Part shown: positions 8,173 through 48,007 of the stretch, piece after piece
How the letters are laid out: every line of letters begins with the position of its first letter
Position numbering within the stretch: position 1 is the stretch's first letter
IMG/VR virus record: IMGVR_UViG_3300042445_001485
DNA: 64,000 bases
Origin: a virus
Taxonomy: Duplodnaviria; Caudoviricetes
Reading direction: 5' to 3' (one strand)
Notes under the pieces: generated by a model
What the model was told of the DNA's origin: nothing
The model's input: the letters and a program-made list of their open reading frames with translations, nothing else
Database searches by the model: none
Position numbers and translations under genes: made by a program

Positions 8173-9270
8173 TTAGAACGTGTGACGCAAGCCAACTGCG
8201 GTGCGCTTTGTTACACCAGCGGTGGCTGTGGCACCTGCGGTGTTGGTGTCAGCATCACGAGTGTCAAAACGTGCATACAAGTTGGTTCTCTTGCTGAGTT
8301 CATGATCCACACCGTAACCAAGAATTTTCTTGTCTACATTGGCTGTGCTCTTTTCATTGCTGGAACCAGTTGACCACATGACGCTGGTAGCACCAACGGT
8401 GTACTTGGCACCAAACATTTGTCCAGTCTGGTCGATAGCGGTGGCTGTGTTTTGTTTTTCTGTCCAACGACCACCATACACAGTTGCGGCACCAATCTTG
8501 TAGTTGGCAGACAACATGCTGAGAGTGTTGTTGGTACCATCAGTCAAGGCCTGTGAACCAGTGGCAATGAATGATGCAGTGGTAGTGGCCAAAGTGCCTG
8601 ACTGCTCAATGCGTTGAGCGGCATACTGCACACTCACGGGACCATTGGCATATTTTACACCATAGTCAACCACACTCTGAGCATTGACGCTGGCACTTGG
8701 TGGCACATACAAATAAGAACCACTTACACCTGCCACTGCTGGAGACTCATAACGAATGGCTCCATTGAAGCGAGTAGGTGCAGATTGTGCTGTGTGAGTT
8801 GCTGTGGCACTGTAACGAGTAAAGATGTTACCGTTTGATCCATAACCTGAACCAATGGCTGTACCAAACACAGATCCGTTGCCCCAGGCATCTAGGATGT
8901 TGGAATTCACACGACCAAGTTTCACAGTGCCCCAATTGGCTTCTGTGCCTATAAAGGCTTCTTGACCCACACCCACAGTGCCTGCTGTGGTTGAGTTGTA
9001 TGTGGTGCCTTCAACTCCGGCACCATTGATGAAATCAGGTGTTAGTTGTAGTTTGAAATTGGCACGGAGTCCGCCGCCTAGATCATCTGTACCGGCAATG
9101 TTCAGCACCGTAGTGGCTGAATTATTGGCTGCAAGACCTTTGGTGTTGACACCAGTGGCTGCATTGGTAAACAACAGGCCGGTATCAACCAGGCCAGTGA
9201 TATTGACAGCACTTTGAGCAAACACAGAGGTGGCCGCAAGTGCAATCATGATTGCGAAGATTTTCTTCAT
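8173..9270 (-). CDS. Gram-negative trimeric porin (betaproteobacterial-type)
   Basis: Signal peptide MKKIFAIMIALAATSVFAQ, alternating beta-strands, RFNGAIRYESP, LSKRTNLYA and terminal VGLRHTF (C-terminal Phe). Confidence 0.93.
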   Translation of the reverse strand: MKKIFAIMIALAATSVFAQSAVNITGLVDTGLLFTNAATGVNTKGLAANNSATTVLNIAGTDDLGGGLRANFKLQLTPDFINGAGVEGTTYNSTTAGTVGVGQEAFIGTEANWGTVKLGRVNSNILDAWGNGSVFGTAIGSGYGSNGNIFTRYSATATHTAQSAPTRFNGAIRYESPAVAGVSGSYLYVPPSASVNAQSVVDYGVKYANGPVSVQYAAQRIEQSGTLATTTASFIATGSQALTDGTNNTLSMLSANYKIGAATVYGGRWTEKQNTATAIDQTGQMFGAKYTVGATSVMWSTGSSNEKSTANVDKKILGYGVDHELSKRTNLYARFDTRDADTNTAGATATAGVTKRTAVGLRHTF

Positions 9271-9317
9271 TGAGTTTTCCTTTTTAATAAAAATCATGGT
9301 CTTTCGATCCATGTGTT

Positions 9318-9376: not shown

Positions 9377-9916
9377 CTATTTGCCAAAAATCTTCTTTAG
9401 TCTACCAAAAGTCACATTGTCTTTTTTAACCGGATCGGTAATAACCATGCTGTAACACCAGCGTTCTTCACCGGGGTTTACTATATTGTGTGGTATTCCC
9501 ACTTGTACCAAACTGGGGTTCTTAATTGTTGCTGTATGCAGTAGTTGAACTTCGGTTGGATCAAATATGGTATACTTGCTACCCACTGGTGTTTCTAACA
9601 TAGCCTTTGGCAAACTGTTTGTAATTCTATACCAATGCATGGTAGACCCTTTGCCACCGAACACCCAGTTAATTTTACCCCTATCACCGGGTCCGTTGTC
9701 AATATGAATACCTAGCGTGTACGGAGTCTCAGGCGGGCCATAAAATAGCTCTAGTCGTTCAAACAATAACCCGTGCCCTTTTAACAGTTTAATCCAGGCC
9801 GGATTAACTGCATTAGAATCTGCATCTATATGACAGCGTTGACTATAATGGGGGTGTTCATAGTCTGGAACAAACAGTGGAGGTTGTAAGCCTAGCGGTA
9901 TACAAAATAAACTCAT
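9377..9916 (-). CDS. HxD...H cupin / 2OG-Fe(II) oxygenase-like protein
   Basis: GIHID ... PHNI; start at ATG 9916, 4 nt after TAAATA. Confidence 0.65.
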   Translation of the reverse strand: MSLFCIPLGLQPPLFVPDYEHPHYSQRCHIDADSNAVNPAWIKLLKGHGLLFERLELFYGPPETPYTLGIHIDNGPGDRGKINWVFGGKGSTMHWYRITNSLPKAMLETPVGSKYTIFDPTEVQLLHTATIKNPSLVQVGIPHNIVNPGEERWCYSMVITDPVKKDNVTFGRLKKIFGK

Positions 9917-9960
9917 AAAGTATTTATTGCTGGTCGTGCCTGGCAATATTATTAAAATAC

Positions 9961-10373: not shown

Positions 10374-10916
10374 TTAATAATGCGAAGGATCCATTGGTCC
10401 AAGTTGATTTAGATAAGCCAGCATATCCTCATAAGTTTGGTCGTACACGGTGATTGCCAGTGTGTATCTATTTGTGGTTCCCAAAGTCAACACTGAATGT
10501 TCTACCTGTGTATTAAACAATATTGGTTGATATCTTATGTACTCAACCGGCTTGACCATAAACATGGACGAATTCTGTTCGCCCACCTTGAATAAAGTGG
10601 TGGCATCAGGGCTATCACTTAGTAGTACATTTATTCCGCATAATCTTGTTCCGCGGGAATTAATTAAATCTTTGTGAAATTTGTAATATGTTCCTGGACT
10701 AAATCTCATATAGTCAAATGCCACATTCTTAAATTCACGCATTAATTTTTTCCCAAAGAGACTGCGTTCAAATCGCATACAGCGAGCTGTGGTTATTTTT
10801 GTTGGCATCTTGTGTTGGGTTGGATTACGGTAAGCCGCTTGTAATGCGTCATAGTAGTAAGAGATTGGTATCGGGGGTAAACCAGTTGATTGATAACAGT
10901 CGTTGATATTGATCAT
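10374..10916 (-). CDS. HxD...H cupin / 2OG-Fe(II) oxygenase-like protein
   Basis: YKFHKD ... EHSV; TAAATA-N4-ATG. Confidence 0.7.
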   Translation of the reverse strand: MININDCYQSTGLPPIPISYYYDALQAAYRNPTQHKMPTKITTARCMRFERSLFGKKLMREFKNVAFDYMRFSPGTYYKFHKDLINSRGTRLCGINVLLSDSPDATTLFKVGEQNSSMFMVKPVEYIRYQPILFNTQVEHSVLTLGTTNRYTLAITVYDQTYEDMLAYLNQLGPMDPSHY

Positions 10917-10929
10917 ACAGTATTTAACT

Positions 10930-11115
10930 TAAGAGAAACCCGCCGAAGCGGGTTTCCTGAGTTTCTGTTACGAGGTATGTCTTACCCTAGGCTACTTTAC
11001 GCGGCCAATGCGAACTGTGAGTCGTTAGCGTTTACTTTTTTTGCTTGATTAACGGTCATCGCCTACCGAGCGCCATTACTTGTACTCTTGACCCAATCGA
11101 TCCTGTGTCAGGCCC
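10930..11115 (-). ncRNA. ssrA: tmRNA coding piece (permuted, two-piece ssrA)
   Basis: 5' GGGCCUG acceptor strand at 11115, D-loop analogue ACACAGGAUCGAU, PK1 (CGC/GCG, CGGU/ACCG), resume context GUAAAC-GCU-AAC-GAC, tag (A)ANDSQFALAA* at 11029-10997; 3' end approximate. Confidence 0.93.
10935..10956 (-). terminator. terminator hairpin at the 3' end of the tmRNA coding piece
   Basis: gaaacccgc-ttcg-gcgggtttc perfect 9-bp stem with UUCG loop (minus strand). Confidence 0.85.
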
Positions 11116-11116
11116 A

Positions 11117-11329
11117 TCATAAGAAAACTTCTTCACCGTGTTCATCGCATAAACTAATATAGTGTTTGTTAGGACCAACAAACTTATACATCAAGTGACC
11201 TTGCTCTTTGTCCCGCTTGGTAAGAACCAAGTAATGCACTTGACCAAATTGGTTGGGCACTTCTTGAAACTTCTCGCCGTGGAATACAGGCAATATCTCT
11301 CCGTCACTTGTTTTTACACAAATCTTCAC
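11117..11329 (-). CDS. 70-aa protein encoded inside the tmRNA intervening segment
   Basis: TAAGGA Shine-Dalgarno immediately after ACCA, GTG at 11329, open for 70 codons, TGA ends 1 nt before the coding-piece 5' G. Confidence 0.7.
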   Translation of the reverse strand: MKICVKTSDGEILPVFHGEKFQEVPNQFGQVHYLVLTKRDKEQGHLMYKFVGPNKHYISLCDEHGEEVFL

Positions 11330-11340
11330 AAACTTCCTTA

Positions 11341-11405
11341 TGGTGGACCTGGGCGGCACTGCCCCGCCGTCTTGAATCCTTTTCTCAGTAACAGTTTACG
11401 CTGTT
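11341..11405 (-). ncRNA. ssrA: tmRNA acceptor piece (permuted ssrA)
   Basis: GAC-GGCGG-GGCAGUG-CCGCC-CAGGUCC-ACCA; pairs with GGGCCUG giving G3:U70; GAUUCAA and CUGUUACU pair with the coding piece; 5' end estimated from the promoter. Confidence 0.92.
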
Positions 11406-11411
11406 CTTGTT

Positions 11412-11440
11412 ATTATATATTTATTTTGATTGCGTGTCAA
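11412..11440 (-). promoter_or_regulatory. sigma70 consensus promoter of the tmRNA locus
   Basis: TTGACA-N17-TATAAT. Confidence 0.9.
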
Positions 11441-11589
11441 CCTATTTGGTACTTGGGTTACATCTGGCTACTATTTTTTTGTTTTGAGCCCGGTATTCTT
11501 CTTGCTTTTGGGACCTGGCCTGCTCTATTTCCGTCACTCATTCTTCAACTCCAATGGACGCCAGACTGGATCGTAGGGTAAAGTCACTG

Positions 11590-11838: not shown

Positions 11839-12113
11839 TCAACTCCGAAATGTTGCTCAATATATGCCGCGGCTTTTAGTTGCCCGTTATACAATTCATC
11901 GTTCATACCACGATTATAGCATTGATCCAAACATTCCCGCACAATCAGTTCGGCGAACTTTGACTCATATGCCTCCGACCAAAAACTCTCACCCTTGAAG
12001 TTATAGTCGGCATACTTTTCAGCCTGTTCAGCAAGTTGTTTAATTCGTTCGTTCATTTCAGTTTCCAATTTGGGGAAGTCAACAGGATTGTTAGTGTTTG
12101 ATTTATGTGTCAT
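11835..12113 (-). CDS. small hypothetical phage protein (KFAELIVREC type)
   Basis: MNERIKQLAEQA...KFAELIVREC...HFGVE pattern. Confidence 0.7.
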   Translation of the reverse strand: MTHKSNTNNPVDFPKLETEMNERIKQLAEQAEKYADYNFKGESFWSEAYESKFAELIVRECLDQCYNRGMNDELYNGQLKAAAYIEQHFGVE

Positions 12114-12158
12114 TCTTCAACTCTACATTGCGCGGTAATAAGACACACGGTGGCTTTA

Positions 12159-12223
12159 TGGTTACGCAGGGTTAAGCACCCCCGGGTCTTGAATCCATTT
12201 TTATCTGCTTCATACAGCAATAA
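12159..12223 (-). pseudogene. partial second tmRNA acceptor piece
   Basis: ttattgct...ggattcaagacccgggggtgc mirrors the acceptor piece, but the T-arm and acceptor strand are broken. Confidence 0.55.
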
Positions 12224-12502: not shown

Positions 12503-12741
12503 AGTATAGTATTTATCCTTCACGCTTCCAAAATCTAAAAGATTCTGTGAGTTTGTTGCGGATGTATTCTTCTGTTTCAGTATCGCAAGATGCTAACTCA
12601 CTATCCACTAAATCGTGAATTTTTGTCCATAATTCATTATATAGGTCTTGCGAATCCATAATATCCTAACACGGTAGTCCTACCCTTGCGTCCAGGACCT
12701 GTTTCTCTTTGCTTCATATAGCAATAACTTACATTGTATAT

Positions 12742-13203
12742 TTATTTTCGACCAATGTCAACCGGTATACTCAATGCTTTTAATCGTTGCAATACCGCAG
12801 GCTTGATTTCCTCAGGGTAATCAATGATGTTTACCAGTTTGATGTATTGATTAGTAAAAGGAATCGCTTGTGCAATTCGTTCTTCTTCTTCTCCGGTTGC
12901 TGGTCCACCTGTATAACCCGGTAAGTTACTTTGCCAAGCATGACTTTGGACATTGGCTAGTTTTCTCACGGCTCGGCCATCAACTGTGATCATTACAGAG
13001 TTGGCAAGATCATTGAAATGGTACCAGTCTGGATTTCTTGTTAAACTTACATTACCGTAGTCACTATAATCAAAATCAGGATCAACATTGTCAGCACCGC
13101 TAACATCCAGCTTGCCACTGCGAACCATACCATTTAACCCTTGTGTAGTAGTTTTGTGGTAAAGTAGATCGGTTGATTCTGTTAGAATTTCATTTATACG
13201 CAT
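12742..13203 (-). CDS. ADP-ribosyltransferase-like fold protein (putative)
   Basis: LYHKT and VSLTR strands typical of ART folds; MRINEILTES N-terminus; TAAATA-N4-ATG. Confidence 0.5.
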   Translation of the reverse strand: MRINEILTESTDLLYHKTTTQGLNGMVRSGKLDVSGADNVDPDFDYSDYGNVSLTRNPDWYHFNDLANSVMITVDGRAVRKLANVQSHAWQSNLPGYTGGPATGEEEERIAQAIPFTNQYIKLVNIIDYPEEIKPAVLQRLKALSIPVDIGRK

Positions 13204-13224: not shown

Positions 13225-13761
13225 TCAATCATAACTGTCAAGTTTCAAATCTTTCAAATGATCCAATGCTTCAGCATAGGCAACTTGGTACAAACTCACA
13301 CTTAAAATATATCTAGGTTGGTCGGTAGGATTTAATACTGCATGTGGATGTTGTGTGTTAAAAAGCGTAGCTCCTAAGAATGTGTAGTCACAAACTACTA
13401 TACCGTGATTCATTTTATTAAATGAATGATCTTTAAACATGGTAACTGCCCCAGGATTCTCGCTAACAACATAGTTGATACAGCATTGTCTTGTTCCGTA
13501 TTTTACACCACTTAGATCACAATGCCAATCATAAAAACTGTAGGGTTCATTTCTAAAAAAAGTAACAATTGTGGTTGAAAACTTTTTTGACAGGTCATTT
13601 ACAAAGTTGGTACCTTGAAACTTTATACAGGAAGCCAAGGTAATTTGATTGGGTTTCTTGTGTTCCTCTGGAAAAAAATACTTGGCTCGTTTTGCCAAGT
13701 CTGTATATTTCTCCGATAACTTTGGTAAATTTGGTAAGTGATGAAAATAATCATGTTCCAT
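13225..13761 (-). CDS. HxD...H cupin / 2OG-Fe(II) oxygenase-like protein
   Basis: YDWHCD ... PHAV; similar in layout to 10374-10916. Confidence 0.7.
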   Translation of the reverse strand: MEHDYFHHLPNLPKLSEKYTDLAKRAKYFFPEEHKKPNQITLASCIKFQGTNFVNDLSKKFSTTIVTFFRNEPYSFYDWHCDLSGVKYGTRQCCINYVVSENPGAVTMFKDHSFNKMNHGIVVCDYTFLGATLFNTQHPHAVLNPTDQPRYILSVSLYQVAYAEALDHLKDLKLDSYD

Positions 13762-14275
13762 TGAGCTGTCCTTGATAATGTTTAATCAACGAAAACGGAT
13801 CAGTGTTGTTTAATCCCACCGTTATAGCAGACCGTTCTGTCTTGATTCCTTTGACTGAATGTAGCACACGAGTATTCAGTATATGCCACCTACTGGGCTC
13901 AATGCATACACTTTCAAGTATATTTAATTTGGCATATTCTGGAATTTTGACCCTGGGCTCTCTCGAAACAGGTTGTCCGGGCTGTTGCCAAAGTGTAGTG
14001 GTCACGGTTGGTCCACCAGTGTTGATTATATAGTTTATTGCCCATAATCTTTTATCACAGTGAGCATTAACATCTTCCGAAATAACCTGATACCCTGCGA
14101 GATCGACATCACTACTGATATTTTCAGCAAGCCAAGATTTTAATTCAGGATGTACGGCCCATCGTGCATAGCCGGCATCTTGGAATCCAATTTGAGTCGG
14201 GTCTGGTATGTAAGGATTCTTCAATAATTCTTCAGGAATCCTGGGCAGTTGATCTAGATATTGGAATAGAATCAT
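13751..14275 (-). CDS. HxD...H cupin / 2OG-Fe(II) oxygenase-like protein
   Basis: NAHCD ... WAINY ... LHSV. Confidence 0.7.
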   Translation of the reverse strand: MILFQYLDQLPRIPEELLKNPYIPDPTQIGFQDAGYARWAVHPELKSWLAENISSDVDLAGYQVISEDVNAHCDKRLWAINYIINTGGPTVTTTLWQQPGQPVSREPRVKIPEYAKLNILESVCIEPSRWHILNTRVLHSVKGIKTERSAITVGLNNTDPFSLIKHYQGQLNGT

Positions 14276-45910: not shown

Positions 45911-48007
45911 TTAAAAACGCATCATTCCCCGTATAAACCAATTGTTAGTGGCTATATCGTCTTTTTGCTGTCTACTTGCATACACACCAATCGATTGATC
46001 TCGTGCTGGACTAAAAGCAACTCCTACTTCGGTATTTCTATATCCGTTGCTGGTACTAGATACATCACCCGATACGGTAAACTCATCAATTGCTTTTGCT
46101 ACACGCACACCTGCTTCGGCATAACCTGTGGAATTATTAACACCATCTATAGTTCTAGCACTTTGTATATCGCCTGACTCAGTATAACCGTTTCTGCGTG
46201 AAGTACCAAAAGTGTAGCCCACATAAGGGCGTACTTCTGCGGATTCTACGGGCAAGGTTGGTACATATAATCTGTTGCTAATCCAGGTGTCTGTGCCATT
46301 GGTTGTGTATGCATTGTTGAACAATCCACCAACACTACGATTTGTGGCTATATTGTTTCTAGCATGACCCAAATTGGTTGCCAATATATGCCCGTCATCA
46401 AATGTATAGATGCTGTATAAACCTGCCGCAACTTTGCCTTGTGTGGTTGTGCTGTCAGTGCCGGTCATTGTGGTATTGAATTGACTGTATTGAGCACCAA
46501 CACGCCAATTTGGTTCAACTTTAACATCGCCACCAATGTTGTACATGTTGCTGGCAGCACCATAGCCGTCGCCCGCGCCAGTTGTTTGTCTACCACCGCG
46601 AATAAAGAAACTCTTTTGACCATCTTCGCTTTTGTAAACATCCATACGGAACGGATCCATGTTTAAACTGCGATTAATACCTGTGTTAAGGACGGACAAC
46701 TTGGCCTGTTGGTCAATACGACCACTGAAACTGTCATTGACCACTGCGGTATCCACATTGTTTTCTACCGTGACTATACTGGTAGGAGCCGCATCAGTGA
46801 ATGTAGTGGTACCATCACTCCATGTAGATGTGGTACGAACCCGAGTTGTCACTGTACGATCATATGGTGTTGTGGTATTTGTAGTTGTTTCTCTACCAAC
46901 AGTCTGTACTGTGGCAGTTTCACCCGGAGTATGATGCGCCAGGCTGGCAATGATGACCGGAAATGAGGTATTAATAGTTCGTGTGTCGGACACTGCAATG
47001 GTTGATGTTGCTGTGCTTACCACTGTAGGAGAACTACTACCGCCAGTTGCCGCCGCATCAGTTGCTGAACCAACATCAGTTAAAGTGCCGCCACCTGGAA
47101 CAGAGCCTGCCGTGCCGCCACCTGCACCTCCGGTTATGGCATAGTTAGCCGCGCCAAAAGCGTTTGGTCCGAATATGTAAGCATACTGAAAGTTAACTAT
47201 GTCACCAGGTGCTACATTGTTTACTAGAAAGCCAAGCCCGATTGTAACATCACCGCGACCGTAGTCTACGGTAACACCACCTGATGTGTATGGACTGTAC
47301 CCGTTGTAGTATATCACCGGGTTAGTGGTCCAATTGTTGGCGTCACCACCAATACCTGCGCCCACATTTGCGGCCGCACTATACAGGCCCAGGGCATAAC
47401 GACTGGTTGTGGCTTCAGCGAAGGCCACATTTGTGCGTGGGATGGCACCGTAGCCCAACACATTGTCTGTGGCACTGGTATCACCGGTCATGGGCATGGC
47501 GTCTGGATCAATGAAACGACCAAAGTACAATCTGCCTATAGCAACACTAGCGGTAATGCCGGTGTTGATGTTGATGTAGCGTTGACCGCTGGGTAAACTA
47601 TAGTTATTTGTGATGGTGAAGTCGCTAGTAGAGGCACTCCATATGGCACCGGCGGCTGTGGGTGTTCCAACCCAGGCGCCGGTTGTGATACTTCTAGCAC
47701 CATTATTGTTGTTTGTGTATGTACTAACTAGTGTTCCGCTACTGTCTTCTAAACGAACAGTAAAGCCTTCAAAAGGTGAACCGGGTGTTAGGTAGTCACC
47801 TTGACATGTATCGCACGGAAATGTACCGGTACCAGTGTTGTCGTACTGTAGACCGGGACGAGTACTACCACCTGAGCCCAAGGTACCAGTAGATAGGTTT
47901 ACACCTGCACGAACATATTCGTTTTCAATTATGACATTTTGTGATATGGCTGTGGTGGCCACGAAGACAGAGAAGGCCGCGAGGGCCTTCGAAAAATAAT
48001 AGCGCAT
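45911..48007 (-). CDS. autotransporter-like outer-membrane protein
   Basis: Signal peptide, Thr/Gly/Ser-rich passenger, about 270-aa C-terminal amphipathic beta-barrel ending in Phe. Confidence 0.8.
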   Translation of the reverse strand: MRYYFSKALAAFSVFVATTAISQNVIIENEYVRAGVNLSTGTLGSGGSTRPGLQYDNTGTGTFPCDTCQGDYLTPGSPFEGFTVRLEDSSGTLVSTYTNNNNGARSITTGAWVGTPTAAGAIWSASTSDFTITNNYSLPSGQRYININTGITASVAIGRLYFGRFIDPDAMPMTGDTSATDNVLGYGAIPRTNVAFAEATTSRYALGLYSAAANVGAGIGGDANNWTTNPVIYYNGYSPYTSGGVTVDYGRGDVTIGLGFLVNNVAPGDIVNFQYAYIFGPNAFGAANYAITGGAGGGTAGSVPGGGTLTDVGSATDAAATGGSSSPTVVSTATSTIAVSDTRTINTSFPVIIASLAHHTPGETATVQTVGRETTTNTTTPYDRTVTTRVRTTSTWSDGTTTFTDAAPTSIVTVENNVDTAVVNDSFSGRIDQQAKLSVLNTGINRSLNMDPFRMDVYKSEDGQKSFFIRGGRQTTGAGDGYGAASNMYNIGGDVKVEPNWRVGAQYSQFNTTMTGTDSTTTQGKVAAGLYSIYTFDDGHILATNLGHARNNIATNRSVGGLFNNAYTTNGTDTWISNRLYVPTLPVESAEVRPYVGYTFGTSRRNGYTESGDIQSARTIDGVNNSTGYAEAGVRVAKAIDEFTVSGDVSSTSNGYRNTEVGVAFSPARDQSIGVYASRQQKDDIATNNWFIRGMMRF

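Follow-up and report, generated by a model that had tools for sequence, protein, structure and literature searches.

Small genes between the two pieces of permuted tmRNA genes in aquatic phages: a 70-codon example and its relatives

We analyzed a 64,000-nucleotide (nt) stretch of DNA (hereafter, the window) from the IMG/VR record IMGVR_UViG_3300042445_001485, a virus of the class Caudoviricetes. On its minus strand, it carries a complete circularly permuted gene for transfer-messenger RNA (tmRNA), in which the two pieces are separated by an intervening segment (spacer) of 225 nt, and a 70-codon gene fills this spacer almost from end to end. Comparison with the tmRNA genes of related phages suggests that the spacer is a recombining cargo slot behind a perfect sigma-70 promoter and that the 70-codon gene is a real passenger, expressed from the tmRNA precursor (pre-tmRNA) or from the excised spacer; we consider this likely. 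The “throw-away” spacer of a stable RNA thus probably has a second role as a messenger.

The 70-codon gene and the tmRNA gene around it

The 70-codon open reading frame (ORF) covers 93% of the spacer; none of 200 shuffles of the segment reached equal cover, and the best antisense ORF covers 13%. A first-pass annotation of the window, made from the letters alone, had proposed a gene that fills the tmRNA spacer, and its coordinates and translation (225 nt, initial TAAGGA, GTG at 11329, 70 codons, TGA) all proved exact. A single T (11116) separates the TGA from the coding piece, whose first bases, GGGCCTG, sit at 11115. The frame is open further upstream, as far as a GTG at 11359 inside the acceptor piece. 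An 80-codon start at that GTG was rejected: it runs through the acceptor piece and is not preceded by a Shine-Dalgarno (SD) sequence, and relatives keep an ATG at the position of 11329.

The same annotation had named the ratio of nonsynonymous to synonymous substitution rates (dN/dS) as a check on the gene. By the Nei-Gojobori method, this ratio is 0.13 against the related locus L010, 0.20 against the free-standing homolog L003, and 0.23 against L107, not about 1; against a group with 66% protein identity (L001/L002), dS is saturated. A variant of the ORF in contigs of two metatranscriptome runs shows 11 differences, 10 of them synonymous changes at third positions and the other I58V. The start region reads ...TTTGATGAAG in L010 and ...TTTGTGAAG in the window, a difference of 1 nt by which the ATG of L010 becomes the GTG of the window with the frame kept. 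By these sequence comparisons, the 70-codon ORF is a genuine protein gene under purifying selection.

Homologs of the 70-amino-acid (aa) protein range from 34 to 96% identity. A word-indexed search yielded P0002 (96%), P0003 (84%), and one fragment; a search of viral contigs yielded L001 and L002 (66%); a profile search of 1.84 billion representatives returned 4 proteins in all, adding P0005 and P0006; and a metagenome scan gave 16 further loci. The homologs recorded are P0002, P0003, P0005, and P0006, along with L001, L002, L042, L107, L181, and L194 to L198. No DNA or protein match was found in the INPHARED phage collection.

The first-pass annotation had asked whether homologs always sit inside permuted tmRNA genes. 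They do not: three lineages lie outside any tmRNA, namely, the P0003 group (L003 to L009 and L183 to L185), the L001/L002 group (L186 to L193), and P0005 (L182). These free-standing homologs are found in operons of small genes in which the stop of one gene overlaps the start of the next, and tmRNA is absent around them; no tmRNA was found in two viral records that carry them, both of which are fragments (18% and 41% complete). Spacer copies are found in the window, L010/L011, L042, L107, and L194/L195, with the acceptor stem CAGGUCC. More distant ones (34 to 40% identity) occur in L181, with the stem CACCUCC (120 bits), and in L197/L198, with the stem CAUCUCC and tmRNAs that exceed the beta_tmRNA cut-off. 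In L181 (positions 804 to 1058; P0006), the public gene call starts 22 codons too early and runs through the T-arm and the acceptor strand (…FDSPHLHQKK…), which shows how spacer genes get misannotated when the tmRNA goes unrecognized.

The protein has no Pfam family at an E value of ≤0.01, and its best PHROGs match has an E value of 0.07. An AlphaFold model shows a small beta-rich fold (pLDDT 87.6). Foldseek searches of PDB and AFDB clusters gave a weak likeness to small beta-barrels at E values of ≥0.15, and VIA-align gave a weak likeness to chromo/Tudor/SH3-like barrels (best Z 4.6); both are too weak to draw a function from. The best Protein Atlas score was 0.77, with no family lead.

The tmRNA gene extends from 11402 to 10997 (Table 1). 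It matches the Rfam families RF04321 with 113.5 bits (gathering score, 47) and RF01849 with 73.7 bits (cut-off, 50), and its coding piece alone scores 71 bits against RF01850 (beta_tmRNA), under the family cut-off of 84. ARAGORN called neither a tmRNA nor a tRNA in the window, and Rfam recovers the tmRNA that ARAGORN missed. The order of the pieces is that of a permuted tmRNA: an acceptor piece ending in CCA (11341), the spacer, and the coding piece. The 7-bp acceptor stem, GGGCCUG:CAGGUCC, has G-U as its third pair (the G3:U70 alanine identity pair). The tag frame at 11029 to 10997, as read from the sequence, is ANDSQFALAA followed by TAA, an ALAA-type degron. Promoter sites like the one in Table 1 occur 9 times in the window, compared with 0.28 expected, and the tmRNA promoter of the window is also found upstream of the tmRNA in L010 and L092. 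The downstream hairpin was not called by a simple terminator scan because its T run is too short.

Table 1. Features of the tmRNA locus in window coordinates
Feature	Position	Strand	Basis
Promoter of the pre-tmRNA unit, TTGACA-17 nt-TATAAT	11412..11440	-	12/12 consensus match
tmRNA acceptor piece (P2 5' strand, T-arm, 3' acceptor strand CAGGTCC, then ACCA)	11341..11402	-	RF04321 alignment
Intervening segment (spacer), 225 nt, between the encoded CCA and the coding-piece 5' G	11116..11340	-	Begins TAAGGA
Closing helix, 5' strand ACCAUAAGGAAGUUU, with SD AAGGA at 11338-11334	11330..11344	-	Paired in the minimum free energy (MFE) fold of the precursor
70-codon gene, GTG start 11329-11327, TGA stop 11119-11117	11117..11329	-	Translation
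Closing helix, 3' strand AAGUUUUCUUAUGAU, coding for the final residues VFL and the stop codon	11116..11130	-	MFE fold, covariation
tmRNA coding piece to the tag stop (5' acceptor strand GGGCCTG, P2 3' strand, tag)	10997..11115	-	RF04321 and RF01849 alignments
G+C-rich hairpin and short T tail 3' of the tmRNA, probable terminator	10930..10957	-	Read from the sequence

Spacers of related phage tmRNA genes

IMG/VR was scanned with two patterns, one for the acceptor piece and one for the start of the coding piece, and loci having both pieces were kept. This yielded at least 105 viral loci with at least 70 unique spacers of 49 to 382 nt. Among the matches listed, 25 of the 27 unique spacers of at least 111 nt are covered to at least 80% by one sense ORF (antisense, 0 of 27), and an SD sequence lies within the first 14 nt in 22 of the 27, whereas spacers shorter than 75 nt have neither an SD sequence (0/15) nor a long ORF (0/15). 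The ORFs of the long spacers start 6 to 12 nt past the CCA, with one exception at 23 nt, and end either 1 nt or 12 to 14 nt ahead of the first base of the coding piece (G1). The cargo comprises, among these same matches, at least 23 families, about 17 of which are at least 32 aa long and unrelated; one is a DUF2061 membrane protein (E value, 3.5e-20). Several spacers of 76 to 112 nt with TAAGGAG code for hydrophobic mini-ORFs of 20 to 32 aa. For seven further cargo pairs (six from other families, one within the 70-aa family), dN/dS is 0.11 to 0.22; one near-identical pair has too few changes for a judgment. The locus, which had first been put forward as the best candidate in the window for an undescribed system, is not a one-off, and its layout is widespread in tmRNA genes of aquatic phages.

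The histories of cargo and backbone differ. The nearest tmRNA backbone among the matches listed, L092, has an acceptor piece 95.5% identical and a coding piece 72% identical to those of the window, but its 61-nt spacer has no ORF and is unrelated to the window spacer. Conversely, the spacers of the window and L010 are 96% identical, while identity falls to 61% for their acceptor pieces and to 36% for their coding pieces, and the two tags are different. The simplest cause of this discordance would be recombination at the conserved stems.

Several longer cargoes (101 to 123 aa; L030:2889-3245, L058:1857-2222, L017:1935-2237, and L066:7885-8196) begin with MRI(K/N)E(L/I)T... or MKISELT..., and a free-standing 153-aa gene of the window (12742-13203, minus strand; MRINEILTES) has the same beginning. 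This common start suggests that these genes share either an N-terminal module or a 5' sequence used for recombination or for starting translation.

The ends of every unique spacer (at least 70) are complementary and extend the acceptor stem. In a pairing test, ACCA plus the first 12 nt of each spacer was set against the last 16 nt of a spacer; own partners (70 unique spacers) formed 13.6 of 16 pairs with a duplex energy of -12.1 kcal/mol, compared with 10.3 pairs and -5.3 kcal/mol for mismatched partners. Spacers without an ORF have the ends TAAAGCATA.../...TATGCTTTTGAT, and coding spacers have the ends TAAGGAAGTTT.../...AAGTTTTCTTATGAT, so that in the latter the SD sequence lies in the 5' strand of the helix and the last codons and TGA lie in its 3' strand. 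The initial TAAGGA of the window spacer, noted at first as an SD sequence, is one, but not that alone: it is also a strand of a covarying closing helix that is kept in ORF-less relatives. The helix leaves its mark on the protein, too. Spacer copies of the 70-aa family end in ...EVFL or ...EVFF, and this C terminus comes from the stem, because free-standing homologs end differently (EPVEVEND, VEVEQ, or EEIEL).

In the MFE fold of the window precursor, the acceptor stem and the closing helix form one composite helix of about 22 bp. Closing helices are weaker in coding spacers (-10.5 versus -12.9 kcal/mol; P value, 1.7e-5, from samples that are phylogenetically non-independent). The precursor as a whole is not unusually structured (z, -0.94).

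Proposed expression of the spacer gene and alternative explanations

A single transcription unit would comprise the sigma-70 promoter, the acceptor piece, the 225-nt spacer, the coding piece, and the hairpin. The slot would be closed by the helix, an extension of the acceptor stem by about 15 bp, and small genes would lie between its two strands, taking their SD sequence from the 5' strand and their stop codon from the 3' strand. The 70-codon gene would have arrived in the tmRNA of the window through recombination at the conserved stems. From what is established for two-piece tmRNAs and for the processing of tRNA-like RNAs, RNase P would be expected to cut ahead of G1 (11115), one base past the stop codon, and the 3' end to be trimmed to the CCA at 11341. 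By analogy with rRNA intervening sequences (PMC4990558), RNase III may first cut the composite helix. Processing needs this helix, in which the SD sequence is hidden, and a ribosome reading the last codons would have to melt it; on any one transcript, translation and maturation would thus be expected to compete.

Because a strong promoter precedes a complete permuted tmRNA whose spacer is occupied by an ORF under selection, the precursor is very probably an mRNA as well. This agrees with the description of the precursor in the first-pass annotation as both an mRNA and a pre-tmRNA, its translation and processing being the predicted part of that description. The product would be a small beta-barrel-like protein, most likely a passenger of the early host-takeover type.

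Several points weigh against a cargo slot with an expressed passenger. The SD sequence is base-paired in the predicted precursor. The conservation of the cassette borders arises partly by construction, since the search patterns require a conserved acceptor stem. The support comes from sequence, and the data from RNA libraries are assembled contigs that possibly contain DNA: the Logan contigs from four metatranscriptome runs are not informative on transcription, ends, or strand, their uncovered parts carry no meaning, and the high contig depth at 10963 to 11068 stems from short contigs of relatives that cover the conserved tag region. The ORF in the 23S rRNA intervening sequence of Coxiella is apparently untranslated and decaying (PMC4990558). 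Finally, at least three widely differing tmRNA backbones and acceptor-stem types carry the 70-aa family in their spacers, and these copies cover its full diversity (34 to 96% identity).

A more far-reaching version of the proposal, which we regard as rather doubtful, makes the spacer a dedicated expression platform, in which phages exchange cassettes of small genes through recombination in the acceptor stem and closing helix, translation is mechanically coupled to maturation, and the 70-aa protein may act on ribosome rescue. Under the same doubtful version, cleavage at G1 would leave a message with its stop codon one base from the 3' end, a near-non-stop substrate for the tmRNA of the same transcript.

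It is unlikely, in our judgment, that the 70-aa protein works together with the phage tmRNA, assisting or regulating trans-translation, tmRNA processing, or tag-dependent proteolysis, with the spacer site giving synthesis in step with the tmRNA. The recurrence of the family in at least three deep tmRNA lineages, with the stems CAGGUCC, CACCUCC (L181), and CAUCUCC (L197/L198), leaves room for such a functional tie; the L010 tmRNA is adjoined by an RF-1-domain (ArfB-like) gene and tRNAs; and a spacer copy branches off first in the midpoint-rooted protein tree. The best tree needs two transitions between spacer and free-standing positions and its supported branches force one, on an alignment (17 rows, 72 columns) that is too poorly resolved for their number or direction. 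However, three lineages of the family stand free in operons with no tmRNA nearby, about 16 further families unrelated to it, membrane mini-proteins among them, use the same slot, and the closest backbone relative (L092) has no ORF in it at all. The Pfam, PHROG, fold, and Atlas searches gave no link to translation factors. The roles first suggested for the protein included those of a cofactor of tmRNA, SmpB, or a protease and that of a passenger gene using the strong promoter. With free-standing homologs, a slot that holds any of about 17 unrelated cargo families or none, and no translation-linked family or fold, the former are left unsupported, and the passenger is the best fit.

It is very improbable that the ORF is untranslated, with the spacer conserved as an RNA (a processing scaffold or a selfish element like the 23S rRNA intervening sequence) and the frame a relic of a captured gene. 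The sequestered SD sequence would agree with this, as would the limitation of the RNA-library evidence for the window to assembled contigs and the case of Coxiella, where the ORF of the intervening sequence is not expressed in vivo and the excised segment is quickly degraded (PMC4990558). A relic, however, fits poorly with 10 synonymous substitutions out of 11 and with dN/dS values of 0.13 to 0.23, and the start codon is kept across the indel between L010 and the window. Among the matches listed, the SD sequence tracks the ORF (22/27 long versus 0/15 short spacers). As to a conserved RNA, the structure of the whole precursor is ordinary, and it is the coding spacers that have the weaker closing helices.

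That the spacer and its ORF form an autonomous mobile element, with the protein driving its own homing-like spread among tmRNA genes, is hardly plausible: a cassette 96% identical between tmRNAs that are otherwise 36 to 61% identical, with sharp borders at the acceptor stem, would suit such an element, but the protein has no nuclease or recombinase motif or family, membrane peptides of 20 to 40 aa and other unrelated cargoes share the layout, so that mobility does not need the 70-aa protein, and ordinary homologous recombination at the conserved stems suffices.

The cargo-slot explanation has consequences for annotation. The spacers of tmRNA genes are deemed disposable and are masked as RNA genes, so genes inside them go unseen or are miscalled, as in P0006 with its 22 extra residues; the tmRNA of the window itself escaped ARAGORN. 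If the spacer is indeed a widely used gene slot, it would add a class of bifunctional transcripts, at once a stable-RNA precursor and an mRNA, and would expose a pool of small phage proteins that are strongly expressed, exchanged rapidly, and likely to be host-takeover or membrane factors. It would also offer a simple natural system for studying the competition of translation with RNase P and RNase III and the fate of messages with a stop codon at their 3' end.

Genomic context and comparison with known systems

The window comes from a large lake phage, and at least 18 metagenome runs from lake water have contigs with the stretch. It codes for an ATP-dependent ligase, ribonucleotide reductase, a radical-SAM enzyme, UDP-glucose dehydrogenase, a porin, and an autotransporter domain. 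The porin (8173-9312, minus strand) belongs to the Gram-negative Porin_4 family (E value, 1.4e-30), and the autotransporter beta-domain (E value, 2e-15) is part of a 698-aa protein (45911-48007, minus strand). Together with the beta_tmRNA-like coding piece, they hint at a betaproteobacterial host. Paralogous genes of ~175 to 190 aa with no Pfam family lie on both sides of the tmRNA unit (9377-9946, 10374-10916, 13225-13761, and 13751-14275, all on the minus strand). The window has no tRNA genes according to ARAGORN. In L010 (1891-2355 and 4445-6040), the tmRNA lies among 10 tRNA genes and beside a 124-aa gene with an RF-1 domain (ArfB-like peptidyl-tRNA hydrolase), forming a ribosome-rescue and translation cluster.

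Several elements on the minus strand of the window resemble parts of the tmRNA unit. At 12150 to 12223, there is a second, broken copy of the acceptor piece, 43 nt of which are 97.7% identical to the 5' part of the L010 acceptor piece (TTATTGCTGTATGAAGCAGATAAAAATGGATTCAAGAC). A degenerate T-arm follows, then ...ACCATAAAG, leading straight into a 92-aa gene at 12113. This copy carries the P2-strand allele of L010, L112, and L125, not that of the working tmRNA, and is consistent with a modular recombination of tmRNA genes. At 12700 to 12765, ahead of a 48-aa gene, the promoter and leader module occurs for a third time (TTGACA-17-TACAAT, then TAAGTTATTGCTATATGAAGCA); in L010, this module stands in front of the tmRNA. 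An element at 11497 to 11519, about 60 nt upstream of the tmRNA promoter, reads CCAGGTCC-CAAAAG and is like the 3' acceptor strand and the start of the closing helix, two bases short. The sequence CCAGGTCC occurs 6 times in the window, compared with 1.0 expected, and the element may be a further tmRNA remnant or due to chance.

Circularly permuted tmRNA genes were reportedly described by Keiler, Shapiro, and Williams in 2000 and by Sharkady and Williams in 2004. Permuted two-piece genes are found in Alpha- and Betaproteobacteria, cyanobacteria, and aquatic phages (PMC9004378, PMC11915505). The tmRNA of the window shares with them the order of the pieces, the tRNA-like domain with G3:U70, the encoded CCA, the ALAA-ended tag, and the matches to RF04321 and RF01849. 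The difference lies in the intervening sequence, which is treated as non-coding in the published descriptions consulted, whereas in the window and its relatives it holds a full gene with the SD sequence and the stop codon in the closing stem. The 2025 tmRNA database includes 79 phage tmRNAs, and the permuted intervening sequences singled out there hold a tRNA-Ala gene or a repetitive element (PMC11915505). The paper on phage Melnitz reports two-piece tmRNAs of phages and does not mention spacer genes (PMC9004378). Full-text literature searches on ORFs in the intervening sequences of permuted tmRNAs returned nothing relevant, and the layout was not found described.

The closest likeness in layout that we considered is to the intervening sequences of 23S rRNA with an S23p ORF in Coxiella burnetii and Leptospira, which are also closed by a stem, excised so that the RNA is left in pieces, horizontally acquired, and occupied by an ORF (PMC4990558). 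However, those sequences lie in helix 45 of the rRNA, are excised by RNase III, and carry a single ORF family, S23p, that is apparently untranslated and decaying (PMC4990558), whereas the tmRNA spacers have many unrelated cargo families under purifying selection, SD sequences, and borders at tRNA-type processing sites. The likeness is one of layout only: the 70-aa protein is not a member of S23p (Pfam 23S_rRNA_IVP).

Group I introns in the T-loop of tmRNA genes, some of which contain homing endonuclease genes, likewise place an ORF inside a segment that is absent from the mature tmRNA, but they are self-splicing, interrupt one-piece genes, and leave exons that are religated (PMC11915505). In contrast, the window spacer sits between the CCA and G1, needs no splicing or ligation, and bears no signature of an intron or an endonuclease: neither an Rfam intron match at the window locus nor a Pfam match for the ORF was obtained.

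Moron-type and early-gene cassettes of large phages, such as the promoter/stem-loop cassettes of the T4 type, shuffle at conserved regulatory flanks. The tmRNA spacers resemble them in having small, unrelated, fast-swapping genes, strong early promoters, and conserved flanks as recombination sites; they differ in that the flanks here are functional parts of a stable RNA, namely, its acceptor stem and closing helix.
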